This document shows, one piece after another, positions 1-62,628 of a stretch of 64,000 nucleotides of DNA (position 1 is the stretch's first letter; each line of letters starts with the position of its first letter). The notes beneath the pieces are model-generated. The model did no database searches, was not told the origin of the DNA, and saw only the letters and a list, made by a program, of their open reading frames with translations. The position numbers and the translations under genes were made by a program. This DNA comes from Aquificaceae bacterium. GTDB taxonomy: Bacteria; Aquificota; Aquificia; Aquificales; Aquificaceae. The DNA lies in NCBI GenBank assembly GCA_037925075.1, contig JAXSNR010000001.1, positions 704,001 through 768,000 on the forward strand, given 5' to 3'.

Positions 1-320
1 AGTTAGAAGGCTACAGACAGCTTATGAACTTGCTCTCAGAAGGTATAAGGGAAGAGAGGGAGCTACACCCTTACAGGGAACATCTTTCCCTTGCGGTAAG
101 AAGAGGTAAGGTTTATAGCCTTGGGGAATATCTTTATGTATCAAAGGACATGTTTGAAGAGTATGTAAAAAGGCTAAAAGGCTTGGGAAGAGAATTTACC
201 ATTCAGCAGGCAAAGGAGACCCTCGGGCTTACCAGAAAGTATCTTATTCCTCTTTTGGAGCATATGGACAGGCTGGGTATAACCAGAAGGGAAGGGGAAA
301 GGAGGGTTTTTCTAAGATGA
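1..320 (+). CDS. selB: Selenocysteine-specific elongation factor SelB, C-terminal winged-helix part (5'-partial)
   Basis: Frame is open from the window edge; C-terminus GLTRKYLIPLLEHMDRLGITRREGERR matches the SelB SECIS-binding winged helix; overlaps the selA start. Confidence 0.85.
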   Translation, partial: LEGYRQLMNLLSEGIREERELHPYREHLSLAVRRGKVYSLGEYLYVSKDMFEEYVKRLKGLGREFTIQQAKETLGLTRKYLIPLLEHMDRLGITRREGERRVFLR

Positions 321-1654
321 GCCTCCTTAGACATATACCGCAAGTCTCAAAGCTTTTAGAAGATTTCAAGGAATATCCTCAGGAGGTAGCAAAAAGGGCA
401 ATAAGGGAGGTATTGCAAAGGGTCAGAGAGGAGATAAAAGAGGGCAAAAGAGAAAGCCTTGAGGACCTTAGAGAGCTTATAAAGAAAAGGATGGACCAGC
501 TTATCACTACAAGCCTAAAAAGGGTGATAAACGCTACGGGGGTGGTCATAAACACAAACCTAGGTAGGTCTGTGCTTTCTGAAGAAGTGGCTGACTTTAT
601 AAAGGAAATTGCGACGCATTACTCAAACCTTGAGTACGACCTTTCTAAGGGTAAAAGGGGTTCAAGGCTGAGCCATGTGGAGGGACTTTTAAGGGACCTT
701 ACTGGTGCGGAAGATGTTCATGTGGTAAACAACAACGCGGGGGCTGTGTATCTTGTGCTGAACACCTTAGCCTTTGGTAAGGAGGTTATAGTCTCAAGGG
801 GTGAGCTTGTGGAGATAGGAGGTAGCTTTCGCATTCCTGACATAATGAGAGCTTCCGGTGCAAGGCTTGTGGAGGTGGGAACTACCAACAGGACAAGGCT
901 TTCCGACTACGAGAGAGCCATAAGCCCGGATACAGCCCTACTTATGAAGGTACACAGAAGCAACTTCTACATGGAGGGCTTTGTGGAGGAGGTAAAACCG
1001 GAAGAGCTTTTGAGCCTTGGACTACCCGTTTATTACGATATGGGAAGTGGAAGCCTTTTGAACCTAAAAGACTTAGGCATAAACACGCAGGAGCCAAGCT
1101 TTGAAGAAGGTATAAGAAAGGGAATGCATATAGTTTCCGGTAGCGGGGACAAGCTACTTGGAGGACCTCAAGCGGGCATTATACTGGGCAAAAGGGAGCT
1201 CATTGAAAGGATAAAGAAAAACCCAATGAGTAGGGCTTTGAGGATTGACAAGCTTACCCTTGCAGGGCTTGAGATGACCCTAAGGCTTTGCCTAAGAGGA
1301 GAATACAGGAAAATTCCCACACTAAGCATGCTTTTGCAAAAACCAGAGGATATTAGAAGGAGGGCTCTCAGGCTTATAAAAAGGCTTAGGTCTATGAAAG
1401 CCCTTGAGGTGCGACTCATAAAAGACCTTTCCCGATGTGGTGGGGGTGCTATGCCCGAGTTAAGCCTTGAAACCTATTGCCTTGCCCTTAAGCACAAAAG
1501 CCTAAGCACCGTGGAACTTGAGAGAAAACTCAGAAATGCGGAGCCACCCGTTATAGGAAGGATAAGGGACGATGTGGTGCTTTTGGACATGAGAACTGTG
1601 AATGACAGGGAGTTGATGGACCTTTTGAAGATTTTAAGGTCCTTGGAGGCTTGA
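317..1654 (+). CDS. selA: L-seryl-tRNA(Sec) selenium transferase
   Basis: VINATGVVINTNLGRS, VNNNAGA, SRGELVEIGGSFRIPD, SGDKLLGGPQAG (PLP lysine) motifs. Confidence 0.97.
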   Translation: MSLLRHIPQVSKLLEDFKEYPQEVAKRAIREVLQRVREEIKEGKRESLEDLRELIKKRMDQLITTSLKRVINATGVVINTNLGRSVLSEEVADFIKEIATHYSNLEYDLSKGKRGSRLSHVEGLLRDLTGAEDVHVVNNNAGAVYLVLNTLAFGKEVIVSRGELVEIGGSFRIPDIMRASGARLVEVGTTNRTRLSDYERAISPDTALLMKVHRSNFYMEGFVEEVKPEELLSLGLPVYYDMGSGSLLNLKDLGINTQEPSFEEGIRKGMHIVSGSGDKLLGGPQAGIILGKRELIERIKKNPMSRALRIDKLTLAGLEMTLRLCLRGEYRKIPTLSMLLQKPEDIRRRALRLIKRLRSMKALEVRLIKDLSRCGGGAMPELSLETYCLALKHKSLSTVELERKLRNAEPPVIGRIRDDVVLLDMRTVNDRELMDLLKILRSLEA

Positions 1655-17900: not shown

Positions 17901-18314
17901 AAAAAGGTCACCGTCATGGCAAACTACTATCTTTTTAAATTTACTTCTGGACAGTTTACCTTTGAGCTGGTTGAGGGAGACCTTCATATCTACGACCATG
18001 CCATAGGACATCATAGGGTGGTTTCAAGTCTCAGCGGTGGTGAGACATTTTTGGCTAGCATCTCTCTTGCCTTTGCGGTGGCGGACATTCTCTCTCAAAA
18101 TGCACCCCTTGAAAGCCTATTTATAGATGAGGGCTTTGGTTCTTTGGACAGAGAAACAAGAGAATCCTTTTCTGAGTTTTTTGACCTTATAAGACAATCC
18201 ACCGACAGGCTTGTGGGCATAATAACCCACGTGGAGGACATAGCGGAAAAGTTTGATCAAAGAATTGAAGTGGAAAAAAGGGATGGCTATACGAACCTAA
18301 AAGTCATATATTAG
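14919..18314 (+). CDS. sbcC: SbcC/Rad50 SMC-like ATPase
   Basis: Walker A GRTGAGKTS, long coiled coil with CPVC zinc hook, LSGGE signature, FIDEGFGSLD. Confidence 0.95.
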   Translation: MRPIRLELENFTVYRGKHSLDFSPLNFFVIKGRTGAGKTSLIDAICYALYGKVPRYGKEKAHAHLISKGQRYMRVALEFSVRGRRYRIEREYQADKKRNLSDFRFYEEGRPKPFREEELNRYLKDILRLDYNIFTKVILLPQNQFDRFLKPQEPKERREILNLLLGFSEALSGLKNLVGEEYKSLVSKMQFLQSRLDQLSHISPGLILQKEKELKEVERAYKDLTEKKSQLEYQLLRCRERDVLQDEHRKTNESLKKLSDEEKEITQKKQRLEIALEILPHLPKVEQYERINLEEKRLNDEMRHKEIELKKYQEEIKTVEEEFEKVNKEFENLEVYNNKRLKISQILRSVEDYMAQKRELNRIETEIAQLEEEKRSHGERLKGLRDKHKSCFENINELRQAIQELEGMNIETEFIRAQKRKEQVERLRELEEEEKKFEKELEGLNKELMSKKEDLERAKREQEGLTSEIENTEEGIKALESFLEEEGKVLQELFSLEEKLKKAVELEEVRKNKAFYQKRLQEIEDSLRSVEKDLEESRERRFEVYAFELRVRLKEGDICPVCGQSARHMEVEETREDLKELIGKQEELEKRERDLRSQLHHIQAQISTLEGREREIEEVLNGLTKEDIQNKVSELKGIREDMSEKRQLLKQKEQNLRELRRKQTELSQSIDKLRFEEAEIREKISSKSSLVKRLEEEKAFLKNALGDNLWAVLEEVQKIEEDYEKLQSLKEREKKLIQELEEVQRDLSEEERNYTKLEERLKNLKEQKKSLEEKLNSMEEEIKESTKEPPSEVLIYRLNKYMQDLEKKIKELQEKYTKTTSYLQGLKVKEASLNSDIQNIKERLSFLQSQKESIATEIYSLLNKFGSFENIKAYALSQDQIKILQEEIEKYNKEKHNLENKLSELKKRLEGLKDLPETSLVEVELKNLNESIHENRRLYGSLQGEMEKLKRELSEKQDLEGNLRELFSSLSLYERLKNDLMDNQFPEFVSQLMLKKVTVMANYYLFKFTSGQFTFELVEGDLHIYDHAIGHHRVVSSLSGGETFLASISLAFAVADILSQNAPLESLFIDEGFGSLDRETRESFSEFFDLIRQSTDRLVGIITHVEDIAEKFDQRIEVEKRDGYTNLKVIY

Positions 18315-18319
18315 TAAGG

Positions 18320-18814
18320 ATGAAAGCCACAAGCAAAAAGGAGTTAAAAGAGCTTTATGACAAAGACTTTCCCCTTTGGGCTGAGATAAACTTAGAACTT
18401 CTAAAAGAAAAAGCCTATGACCTCGTAGACTGGGAAAACCTATTGGAGGAAATAGAGGATATGGCAAGGTCTGACCTAAGGGGTTGTATAAGTCAGTTGG
18501 CAAGGATTTTGGAACATCTTTATAAGTGGGATAACTTCAAAGAGCTAGCTGGTGGTAAAACCGCAGGTATGGGATGGGTCAGAAGCATAGAGAATGCAAG
18601 GAACGAAATACTTGATACCTTTGACCTATCACCAAGCCTAAGGTCAAAACTGCCTTTGGAGCTTGACACTGCTTGGCGTTTTGCAAGGAGAAGGCTAAAC
18701 ACATGGCTTGTGCAAAACAACCAAAGACCAGAAGATTTTCATATCCCCGAAGAATGCCCCTACACTTACGAAACTGCCATGACAAGGGACTTAAGGAAGG
18801 AGATAAAACCATGA
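18320..18814 (+). CDS. DUF29 family protein, copy 1
   Basis: LY.KDF.LW..LL...DWENLLEEIEDM..LEHL.KW..PSL..P.ECPY signature. Confidence 0.88.
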   Translation: MKATSKKELKELYDKDFPLWAEINLELLKEKAYDLVDWENLLEEIEDMARSDLRGCISQLARILEHLYKWDNFKELAGGKTAGMGWVRSIENARNEILDTFDLSPSLRSKLPLELDTAWRFARRRLNTWLVQNNQRPEDFHIPEECPYTYETAMTRDLRKEIKP

Positions 18815-19305
18815 AAACCATAAGCAAGGAAGAGTTAAAAGAGCTTTACGACAAAGATTTTCCCCTTTGGGCTGAAATCAATTTAGAGCTTCTTAGGGAA
18901 AAAGCCTATGACCTTGTGGATTGGGAAAATCTCCTGGAGGAAATAGAGGATATGGCAAGGTCGGACTTAAAAGCCTGTATAAGCTATTTAGCGGTGATTT
19001 TGGAACACCTTTATAAGTGGGACCACTTTAGAGATTTGGCAGGTGGAGAAACTGCGGGAAGGTCTTGGATGAAAAGCGTAGAAAAGGCAAGGAACGAGAT
19101 TAGAACCATGTTTATGGATTATCCAAGCTTGAGGAATAAACTTCCCAACGAAGTTGAAAAGGCGTGGAGACATGCGGTAAGCAGGCTAAAAGGATGGCTT
19201 ATAGACAATGACTACGAGCCAGAGGACTTTAACATACCTGAAAAATGCCCCTACACTTACGAAACCGCCATGACAAGGGACCTAAGAAAGGAGATAAAGC
19301 CATGA
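18811..19305 (+). CDS. DUF29 family protein, copy 2
   Basis: Paralog of copy 1; start reassigned to ATG 18811 (AGGAG SD, ATGA overlap). Confidence 0.88.
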   Translation: MKTISKEELKELYDKDFPLWAEINLELLREKAYDLVDWENLLEEIEDMARSDLKACISYLAVILEHLYKWDHFRDLAGGETAGRSWMKSVEKARNEIRTMFMDYPSLRNKLPNEVEKAWRHAVSRLKGWLIDNDYEPEDFNIPEKCPYTYETAMTRDLRKEIKP

Positions 19306-19790
19306 AAACCATAAGCAAAGAAGAGTTAAAAGAGCTTTATGACAAAGATTTTCCACTCTGGGCTGAAATCAACTTGGAGCTTCTAAAAGAAAAAGCCTAT
19401 GACCTTGTGGATTGGGAAAACCTATTGGAGGAAATAGAAGATATAGCACAGAGGCACTTAGATGCTTGTGTAAGCTATTTAGCGGTTATTTTGGAACACC
19501 TTTATAAGTGGGACCACTTTAGAGACTTAGCGGGCGGAGGGACCGCAGGGAGAAAGTGGATAAAGAGTGTTTTGGTCTCAAGGCTGGAAATAGATGCCAT
19601 GTTTAAGAAATACCCAAGCCTGAAATCAAAGCTACCCAAAGAGCTTAAAACCGCATGGATAGACGCTAGAAAGGAGCTATTCAAGTGGCTTATTAAAAAG
19701 GACCTTGACCCAGAGAACTTTTCCATACCCGAAGAATGCCCCTACACTTATGAGATTGCAATGACAAGAGACCTAAGAAGGGAACAATGA
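19302..19790 (+). CDS. DUF29 family protein, copy 3
   Basis: Paralog; start reassigned to ATG 19302 (AGGAG SD, ATGA overlap). Confidence 0.88.
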   Translation: MKTISKEELKELYDKDFPLWAEINLELLKEKAYDLVDWENLLEEIEDIAQRHLDACVSYLAVILEHLYKWDHFRDLAGGGTAGRKWIKSVLVSRLEIDAMFKKYPSLKSKLPKELKTAWIDARKELFKWLIKKDLDPENFSIPEECPYTYEIAMTRDLRREQ

Positions 19791-62003: not shown

Positions 62004-62109
62004 CTTGTTTATGCTGTTCTTGTGTGGTTGTTCCGCTGTGGTAAGTCAAAGGGAAGGAGATGTGGAAATAGGCGGAGGAGTTCAGATACAAATACAACAT
62101 AGGAGGTAA
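61990..62109 (+). CDS. Putative 39-aa lipoprotein, not in the ORF track
   Basis: MFWISLFMLFLCG-CSAVVSQREGDVEIGGGVQIQIQHRR*; fills the maf-redoxin gap. Confidence 0.5.
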   Translation: MFWISLFMLFLCGCSAVVSQREGDVEIGGGVQIQIQHRR

Positions 62110-62112
62110 GAT

Positions 62113-62613
62113 ATGCCCTTAAAGGTTGGAGAAAAGGCTAAGGACTTTGAGCTTTCTGATGTGGATGGAAGTTTTCACTCCTTGGCGGAGACGGAAGGTT
62201 ATAGGCTATTGGTTTTTTACAAGGTTACCTGTCCAACCTGCCAACTAACACTGCCCTTTGTGGAAAAGCTATACGGGCTTTACGGACATAAGATTACCTT
62301 CTGGGGCATAGCTCAAGACCCAGACCACGCGGTGCATGATTTTGCCAAGACCTACGGGCTTACCTTCCCACAGCTTATAGACTATCCAGACTATGCGGTA
62401 TCTGTGGATTACCATGTGCAGGTGGTACCGACCATATACCTGATAAACCCACAGGGAATTATAGAGTTTGTGAGCTACTCTTTTGTAAAGGCTGAAATCC
62501 AAAAGCTTACAGAAAAGTTGTCTCATATTGCGGAGAAGCCCTTTGAGGATGTTTTTTCAGGTCAGCGTGTGCCTGAATTAAAGCCCGGCTGAGGCTCAAG
62601 AAGTAGGCGTTAG
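62113..62613 (+). CDS. AhpC/TSA-TlpA-like redoxin, probable selenoprotein (UGA 62590-62592 read as Sec)
   Basis: CPTC active site, VPT cis-Pro loop; C-terminus KPG-TGA-GSRSRR-TAG with a hairpin right after the TGA; selA/selB in the same window. Confidence 0.8.
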
Positions 62614-62628
62614 GCTAACGCTATGAGC
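62594..62628 (+). promoter_or_regulatory. Candidate bacterial SECIS element
   Basis: GCTCA/TGAGC lower stem, GCGTTA-GGC-TAACGC apical stem-loop with G-first loop 20 nt after the UGA. Confidence 0.65.

Follow-up and report, generated by a model that had tools for sequence, protein, structure and literature searches.

In the 64,000-nucleotide stretch of Aquificaceae bacterium DNA that was analysed (the window), the gene that starts at position 62,113 very probably encodes a selenocysteine-containing redoxin, and comparison with its homologues suggests that it belongs to an apparently uncatalogued subfamily. As described in an earlier sequence-only reading, the open reading frame carrying the CPTC motif runs to KPG, is interrupted by a TGA and continues in frame with GSRSRR up to a TAG, which places the predicted selenocysteine (Sec) six residues before the real end of the protein (Table 1). 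We regard the insertion of Sec at this UGA as very likely, judging from the homologues. The 166-residue product with Sec on its C-terminal tail, proposed from the window alone, is upheld with the same high confidence by the conservation of either UGA or Cys at this site across the loci of the family. The CPTC motif is intact and the predicted Sec lies 117 residues farther along the chain.

Table 1. Positions in the window of the redoxin gene, its predicted functional elements and the neighbouring Sec machinery genes.
Feature	Positions	Strand	Remarks
selB (Sec elongation factor), 3' end	1..311	+	TIGR00475, 412 bits (cut-off 242.25); match C1:702626-704311, starts upstream of the window
selA (Sec synthase)	326..1639	+	TIGR00474, 578 bits (cut-off 267.9); whole gene inside the window
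RBS-like GGAGG	62102..62106	+	upstream of the ATG, read from the sequence; putative function
Read-through gene, 166-aa thioredoxin-fold (AhpC-TSA/Redoxin) predicted selenoprotein	62113..62613	+	ATG at 62113, true stop TAG at 62611-62613
C40-P-T-C43 redox motif	62230..62241	+	the sole two Cys of the protein
V104-V105-P106, thioredoxin cis-Pro loop position, predicted tail docking site	62422..62430	+	alignment and models
C-terminal tail K-P-G-U-G-S-R-S-R-R	62581..62610	+	U, predicted Sec
In-frame TGA, predicted Sec 160	62590..62592	+	TGA/Cys conservation in homologues
SECIS upper stem-loop	62606..62622	+	stem of 6-7 bp, loop sequence GGC; the TAG ends on the loop G, 62613

The protein matched the Pfam families PF00578 (E 2.9e-18) and PF08534 (E 2.4e-14), and in the NCBIfam profile comparison it passed no cut-off, whether or not the tail was included. 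Its redoxin domain begins at about residue 4 and the chain has no hydrophobic stretch, the highest 19-residue hydropathy being 1.28; the best reading is a cytoplasmic oxidoreductase of the ResA/TlpA fold. The closest relatives found in the genome collection were from Aquificaceae. Among 106 aligned members, which were chosen for having the tail, P106 and C40 were present in all 106, while C43 was found in 97, the other 9 having Ser or Val in its place. Among the 68 distinct UGA members, between 4 and 10 tail residues follow the UGA, most often 6 (46 members), and G-S-R/K is conserved directly behind the site. The gene lies between maf, upstream, and yggS, whose ATG is at 62623.

The host genome (G000) contains tRNA-Sec (C1:679700-679795), the selB-selA pair (C1:702626-705639), a Sec-type selD with an in-frame TGA (C1:212766-213671) and an fdhA with an in-frame TGA (C1:673332-676349). 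The fdhA, tRNA-Sec and selB-selA genes cluster within about 33 kb, and the Sec-type selD is far off. Both selA and selB had been assigned to the window; selA is indeed there as a whole gene, and of selB only the last 311 nucleotides are. A single tRNA with a TCA anticodon was found in the genome, and it was called as tRNA-SeC. The motif scan of the genome for further selenoproteins was too loose to be of use beyond selD and fdhA. The redoxin is a third predicted selenoprotein of this small thermophile genome, with SelD and FdhA. The Rfam search of the window gave one tRNA and nothing else. At 18269-19790 the window also contains three highly similar tandem ORFs of about 180 residues each, presumably DUF29-type proteins.

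Evidence for recoding comes from the codon found at position 160 in homologous genes. When 178 Aquificota genomes were searched at E 1e-15, 39 matches were obtained, namely one distant paralogue, aligned over residues 6-126, and 38 full orthologues, all from one family, to which the gene is confined among the genomes searched. Each of these 38 orthologues has one in-frame TGA. Among 37 loci retrieved from the genome collection, the site is TGA in 32 (in Aquificota, two Armatimonadota-like genomes, Actinomycetota and one Acidobacteriota); one locus is truncated by a contig end, and the other four are distant paralogues that lack the tail. In a sample of 201 Acidobacteriota genomes, 32 of which matched, the site could be read in 30 loci and was TGA in 19, TGC or TGT in 11 and TAA or TAG in none. 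The family loci read come from four phyla, and each of them has a TGA or a Cys codon; homologues that end at PG with TAA or TAG, which would have spoken against the proposal, were absent from this set. Two of the loci, L016 (from G180) and L098 (from G220), come from genomes flagged as unpublished; each contributes one row to the UGA counts, alignment A4, the tree and the SelA tallies, L016 alone is in alignment A2, and no conclusion rests on either of them.

Protein records give the complementary picture. Of the best 150 protein representatives, 107 end at the Gly before the site, as do 65 of 68 further close homologues, which bears out the expectation that gene callers truncate this gene, one residue before the UGA. 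In six of the 150 the chain continues as PG-C, in stand-alone Cys forms, and the remaining 37 have other or unrelated ends. PG-C forms, 11 fused and 6 stand-alone, were found in the Acidobacteriota loci and the protein collections, so that homologues with Cys aligned to the UGA, which the sequence-only reading had suggested looking for, do exist. In a 51-row alignment of the tail, with TGA read as U, G-C is invariant. On an 86-row tree, built from 129 columns with all rows cut before the Sec site, the Cys label needs five changes, at least three of which are forced by well-supported branches; this supports repeated Sec/Cys changes at the site, and no direction of change is claimed from a short alignment and an unrooted tree. 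In several members (L016, L024, L027, L028, L064, L066, L075, L076 and others) the next in-frame stop, 4-10 codons after the Sec site, is a second TGA located inside the SECIS stem or apex. The short tail of these genes would probably hold one recoded and one terminating UGA. In the ESM Atlas the related clusters bear generic redoxin or peroxiredoxin names only and are commonest in Acidobacteriota.

The presence of the gene was also compared with that of the Sec machinery, in counts that are descriptive only because the genomes are kin and not independent. SelB scored over the cut-off in 35 of the 38 Aquificota carriers, as compared to 74 of the 178 genomes of the phylum. The three other carriers are fragmented assemblies: one (G017) has selA and a Sec-type selD, another (G009) a Sec-type selD, and the third (G062, 64% complete) only a fragment of the SelB family at a contig end. 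Within the carrier family SelB was found in 49 of 90 genomes, 35 of which have the redoxin gene; the remaining SelB-positive ones yielded no Cys version. This query gave no orthologue in 25 SelB-positive genomes of family f5 or in the near-complete, Sec-using G001. Among 20 non-Aquificota genomes reached via the loci, SelA passed its cut-off in 16 and was present in pieces in two; the last two, which include the host of a distant paralogue, gave no SelA. All 32 Acidobacteriota carriers have SelA, the baseline being already 160 of 201.

The hairpin that follows the UGA had been proposed as a bacterial SECIS element with an upper and a lower stem, and the two parts fared differently. The upper stem, GCGTTA/TAACGC, consists of 6 bp at 62607-62621 with the loop G 20 nt after the UGA. 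Over 46 distinct 40-nt sequences, 80.1% of its cells are paired and six of seven pairs are changed on both sides; its covariation was 0.341 as compared to 0.164 in shuffled alignments and at most 0.155 with slid partners, although the tested structure was derived from the same 46 sequences and is therefore favoured over the slid controls. The arms of the lower stem, GCTCA at 62594 and TGAGC at 62624, are present as described and are not conserved as a helix, since 57% of the cells are paired vs. 55.7% after shuffling, and 124 of 500 shuffles were as high; the 3' arm is in fact the start of the next gene. The conserved SECIS is thus the upper stem only, as far as the alignment tells. A hairpin of at least six pairs with G first in the loop (strict rule) was found behind 56 of the 68 UGA members, the other 12 failing the rule, and behind none of the 11 Cys members.

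Taken singly, the hairpin of this gene is weak (z = -1.77, with 11 of 200 shuffles folding as well), and its significance comes from conservation and covariation, not from single-gene folding. The minimum-energy fold (-12.6) has another inner helix than the structure proposed at first (-9.1); SECIS-type folds of the 41 nt range from -9.1 to -11.8 and the apical hairpin alone gives -6.9. Of the 778 ORFs of this genome that end in UGA, 40 are followed by a hairpin of this type, a number given both for a loose and for the strict rule. [quoted passage not shown] The element reaches right up to the start codon of yggS (62623), and its apex contains the redoxin TAG. The yggS gene follows the redoxin in 20 of 30 Aquificaceae loci and in none of 48 other loci, which keep the hairpin all the same; the hairpin therefore does not belong to the next gene. 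For the 20 Aquificaceae loci with yggS in this place, a coupling between read-through and the translation of yggS is conceivable.

These data bear on two readings in which Sec is not inserted. If the TGA were an ordinary stop, the product would be a 159-residue protein and the hairpin a terminator or an element of the next gene. Database records do end there (WP_121009649.1 has 159 residues), and the hairpin is unremarkable in isolation and terminator-like on the minus strand (one found, 0.8 expected). A plain stop would, however, drift among TAA, TAG and TGA, whereas all family loci read, from four phyla, have TGA or a Cys codon at the site; moreover, the residues behind it are conserved (G-S-R/K), the coding strand has no T-run, the downstream genes differ and the Cys forms have no hairpin. 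We consider this explanation very improbable. Reading of the UGA as Trp or Cys, through a changed code or by leakage, is permitted by the in-frame UGA alone, but 778 ORFs of at least 100 residues end in UGA in this genome, the only TCA-anticodon tRNA is called as tRNA-SeC, and the homologues align Cys, not Trp, which makes such a reading scarcely credible.

Where the Sec tail might act was examined in AlphaFold models in which residue 160 was modelled as Cys. The full-length model (pLDDT 96.6, dropping to 74 over residues 161-166) shows the extended thioredoxin fold with CxxC and the conserved Pro at the cis-Pro position, and has beta-bridges at 104-105, 124-125, 156-157 and 160-161. In the model ending at Gly159 (pLDDT 97.2) the 104-105 bridge is lost and those at 124-125 and 156-157 are kept; the two models were built on different alignments, of 106 and 98 rows. 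The loss of the 104-105 bridge on truncation suggests that residues 160-161 pair with the V104-V105-P106 loop. [quoted passage not shown] The models make it probable that the tail docks at Cys40 in the protein's own substrate groove, a docking read only from the secondary-structure letters of the models. The invariance of C40 and P106, as opposed to C43, suggests that the core pair consists of Cys40 and residue 160.

We propose that SelB, acting on the hairpin behind the UGA, inserts Sec at position 160 and that the tail works as a built-in swinging arm. The Sec160 selenolate would reduce an outside target (a disulfide or persulfide of a partner protein, or a peroxide); the oxidised selenium would be caught by Cys40 in a Cys40-Sec160 selenenylsulfide, and Cys43 would shift the bond to a Cys40-Cys43 disulfide, freeing the selenol. 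The disulfide would then be re-reduced by the thioredoxin/thioredoxin-reductase system. Without Sec insertion, translation would stop at Gly159 and leave the arm minus its reactive residue. This cytoplasmic relay, with electrons flowing from the CxxC to the Sec arm and on to an outside target, is favoured because the peroxiredoxin motif and a membrane anchor are absent, the core pair appears to be Cys40 and residue 160, and the fold is ResA-like; by analogy with known systems we hold it with moderate confidence. It has to be considered, as a point against the relay, that a tail filling the groove must leave before the CxxC can be re-reduced. The Aquificaceae neighbours maf and yggS point to no substrate.

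The same predicted docking and the dispensable C43 fit a scheme in which Sec is inserted and the roles are reversed, so that Cys40 would be the attacking residue and the tail Sec would be the resolving one, releasing the substrate and carrying the oxidation out to a reductant. In PMC3091736 the C-terminal Cys of 2ywi, whose structure matches the redoxin over its full length, is regarded as a resolving cysteine, but this assignment is an inference in that work. In addition, the docked tail would block the groove that a substrate of Cys40 needs, and Sec in the catalogued redox selenoproteins (Table 1 of PMC13188914) mostly appears to take the attacking position of the motif. On balance the reversed scheme seems rather unlikely. 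The Sec tail might instead be a cap, a sensor or a metal(loid)-binding site, with selenium supply deciding whether a capped long form or an open form of 159 residues is made. The confidence of the truncated model (pLDDT 97.2) equals that of the full-length one, the tail would bring three thiol/selenol groups together, and read-through could open the hairpin, which ends at the yggS ATG, in the share of Aquificaceae where yggS follows. Yet the Cys versions cannot switch and keep the tail, some with a further 370-residue domain behind it, and the loci outside Aquificaceae keep the hairpin without any yggS; we therefore find a cap or sensor improbable. The relay from the CxxC through the Sec arm to an outside target remains our preferred reading.

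The Acidobacteriota Cys forms extend for 179-383 residues past the site, some of them being cut by the locus end. A Cys redoxin fused to a domain of about 370 residues was observed in L086:355-1989 (minus strand), L091, L094, L088 and L100-L106, and the added part gave no Pfam or NCBIfam match in the four forms scanned. In six of seven neighbourhoods fetched, the Cys fusion is followed by a UGSC-motif gene with an in-frame TGA, and the one such gene that was scanned passes NF041046. One genome (G303) has two copies of the 370-residue domain, each beside a UGSC gene. This domain was not found in G000, G047, G010, G048, G366, G182 and G375 (positive controls G303 and G263), nor the UGSC gene in G000, G048, G010 and G375 (positive control G303); since the search of this genome (G000) gave neither, neither is the partner of the redoxin here. 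Two Acidobacteriota UGA loci were scanned because their neighbours resembled thioredoxin reductase, and in both a thioredoxin-reductase gene lies directly downstream of the UGA form (L077:502-1446, minus strand, and L081:2038-3231, plus strand), that of L081 being fused to a glutaredoxin. This adjacency speaks for the proposed relay, although it was seen in these two loci only.

As regards novelty, none of the 119 prokaryotic families in Table 1 of PMC13188914 (2026) corresponds to a CxxC redoxin with Sec on a C-terminal tail, and this layout is absent from NCBIfam. The string GUGS occurs 0 times in four supplements of PMC12013277, in which some long cells are incomplete, and neither UGSR nor UGSK was found in the four supplements of PMC2398784, the ocean-sampling survey. 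The layout is not mentioned in the consulted parts of PMC13326102, PMC13745706 and PMC1976440. The literature search gave no description of it; the supplements of Haft and Tolstoy 2025 (mSystems), which may bear on novelty, lie outside this comparison, and the families of that work appear in the 2026 table. The RefSeq look-up that gave the 159-residue record would miss records bearing U.

Put together, these elements compose a broader and tentative picture, which as a whole we hold to be possible but slightly less probable than its opposite. A large uncatalogued family of at least four phyla would have been hidden by truncation; its Sec forms would be thioredoxins equipped with a swinging Sec arm of their own, which docks at the cis-Pro loop and carries electrons from the CxxC to an outside target, and in the Cys forms the arm would feed electrons to the 370-residue/UGSC system, selenium having moved between components several times. 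The SECIS would lie half in the 3' untranslated region, the stop codon giving its key G. Catalogues drive annotation, and the records of this family end one residue before the likely reactive selenium in nearly every case seen. A predicted three-residue relay (Cys-x-x-Cys plus tail Sec) in one 18-kDa domain of a hot-spring lineage would be a simple test of selenium vs. sulfur, for which the natural Cys, CxxS and fused variants are controls. The family also offers a way into the uncharacterised UGSC neighbourhood, and it is a naturally occurring example of a putative bacterial SECIS overlapping a stop codon.

Among known systems, the peroxiredoxins (BCP/PrxQ, AhpC) are defined by the motif PxxxT/SxxC and a catalytic Arg. 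A peroxiredoxin identity does not fit the redoxin, which has FYKVTCPTC with V-P at the cis-Pro site and lacks the peroxiredoxin motif, and whose scores are below cut-off (27 vs. 140 for NF006960 and 26 vs. 260 for NF053650). The resemblance to ResA/TlpA/CcmG(DsbE) proteins is in the extended thioredoxin fold, the CxxC and the cis-Pro position (B. subtilis ResA, 1su9 and 1st9; 3gl3). The best Foldseek match of the model was 1su9 (E 5e-12, 27% identity), and ResA-type structures gave Z values of 19-20, aligned only over about residues 1-143 of the model. That group is defined by an N-terminal membrane anchor or export signal, whereas the redoxin has no N-terminal hydrophobic anchor, has Lys37 where ResA has Trp, carries an extra predicted Sec tail that the ResA structures do not cover, and stays below the ResA and CcmG family cut-offs (68.4 vs. 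170 for NF002854 and 20.7 vs. 123 for TIGR00385). Structures of a further type, thioredoxin-like proteins with a C-terminal extension that we take to be CDD PRX_like1, namely 2ywo and 2cvb (Thermus), 2ywi (Geobacillus) and 3u5r (Sinorhizobium), align over residues 1-166 of the model with Z values of 17.6-18.5. They differ from the redoxin in sequence (20-24% identity) and are not listed as selenoproteins. A C-terminal cysteine is described for 2ywi (PMC3091736), which may or may not correspond to U160; the tail profile matched no sequence of a solved structure, these four included, at E up to 10. A link between 2cvb and the locus tag TTHA1422, which is called SoxW in PMC10318464, was not confirmed, and no connection to sulfur oxidation is therefore drawn.

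The catalogued Prx-like and TlpA-like selenoproteins share with the redoxin the thioredoxin fold and Sec encoded by UGA with a downstream SECIS. The set compared comprises the Prx-like thiol:disulfide oxidoreductase UxxC, the Redoxin family UxxC, the UGC-containing TlpA/WAxxUGC NF041054 and VPGUxxT NF041383, and the thioredoxin-fold subfamilies considered were UxxC, CxxU, TxxU, WAxxUGC, VPGU and UGSC. In the catalogued proteins Sec is in the CxxC position, in the N-terminal half, and the representatives of six thioredoxin-fold families in supplement 3 of PMC12013277 carry it at the motif position; in the redoxin, on the contrary, the CPTC is intact and the predicted Sec is on the tail. The redoxin scored 16.9 with NF041054, against a cut-off of 300, and gave no match with NF041383 at E up to 1; with four full-length and 51 tail sequences, none of the NCBIfam selenoprotein models reached its cut-off. 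The predicted SECIS resembles that of fdhA of the same genome, in that both have a triloop beginning with G, enclosed by an A-T pair and placed 19-20 nt behind the UGA. Unlike the fdhA element, it straddles the stop codon and is half in the 3' untranslated region, and in most members of the redoxin family the loop G is the G of the stop codon. In mammalian thioredoxin reductase a short C-terminal Gly-Cys-Sec-Gly arm takes up electrons from a CxxC-type centre inside the protein and passes them on to outside substrates, and the Sec arm of the redoxin may work in a similar way. This is an analogy of function and no homology is claimed: the redoxin has another fold, no flavin, a single predicted Sec without an adjacent Cys and a bacterial SECIS.
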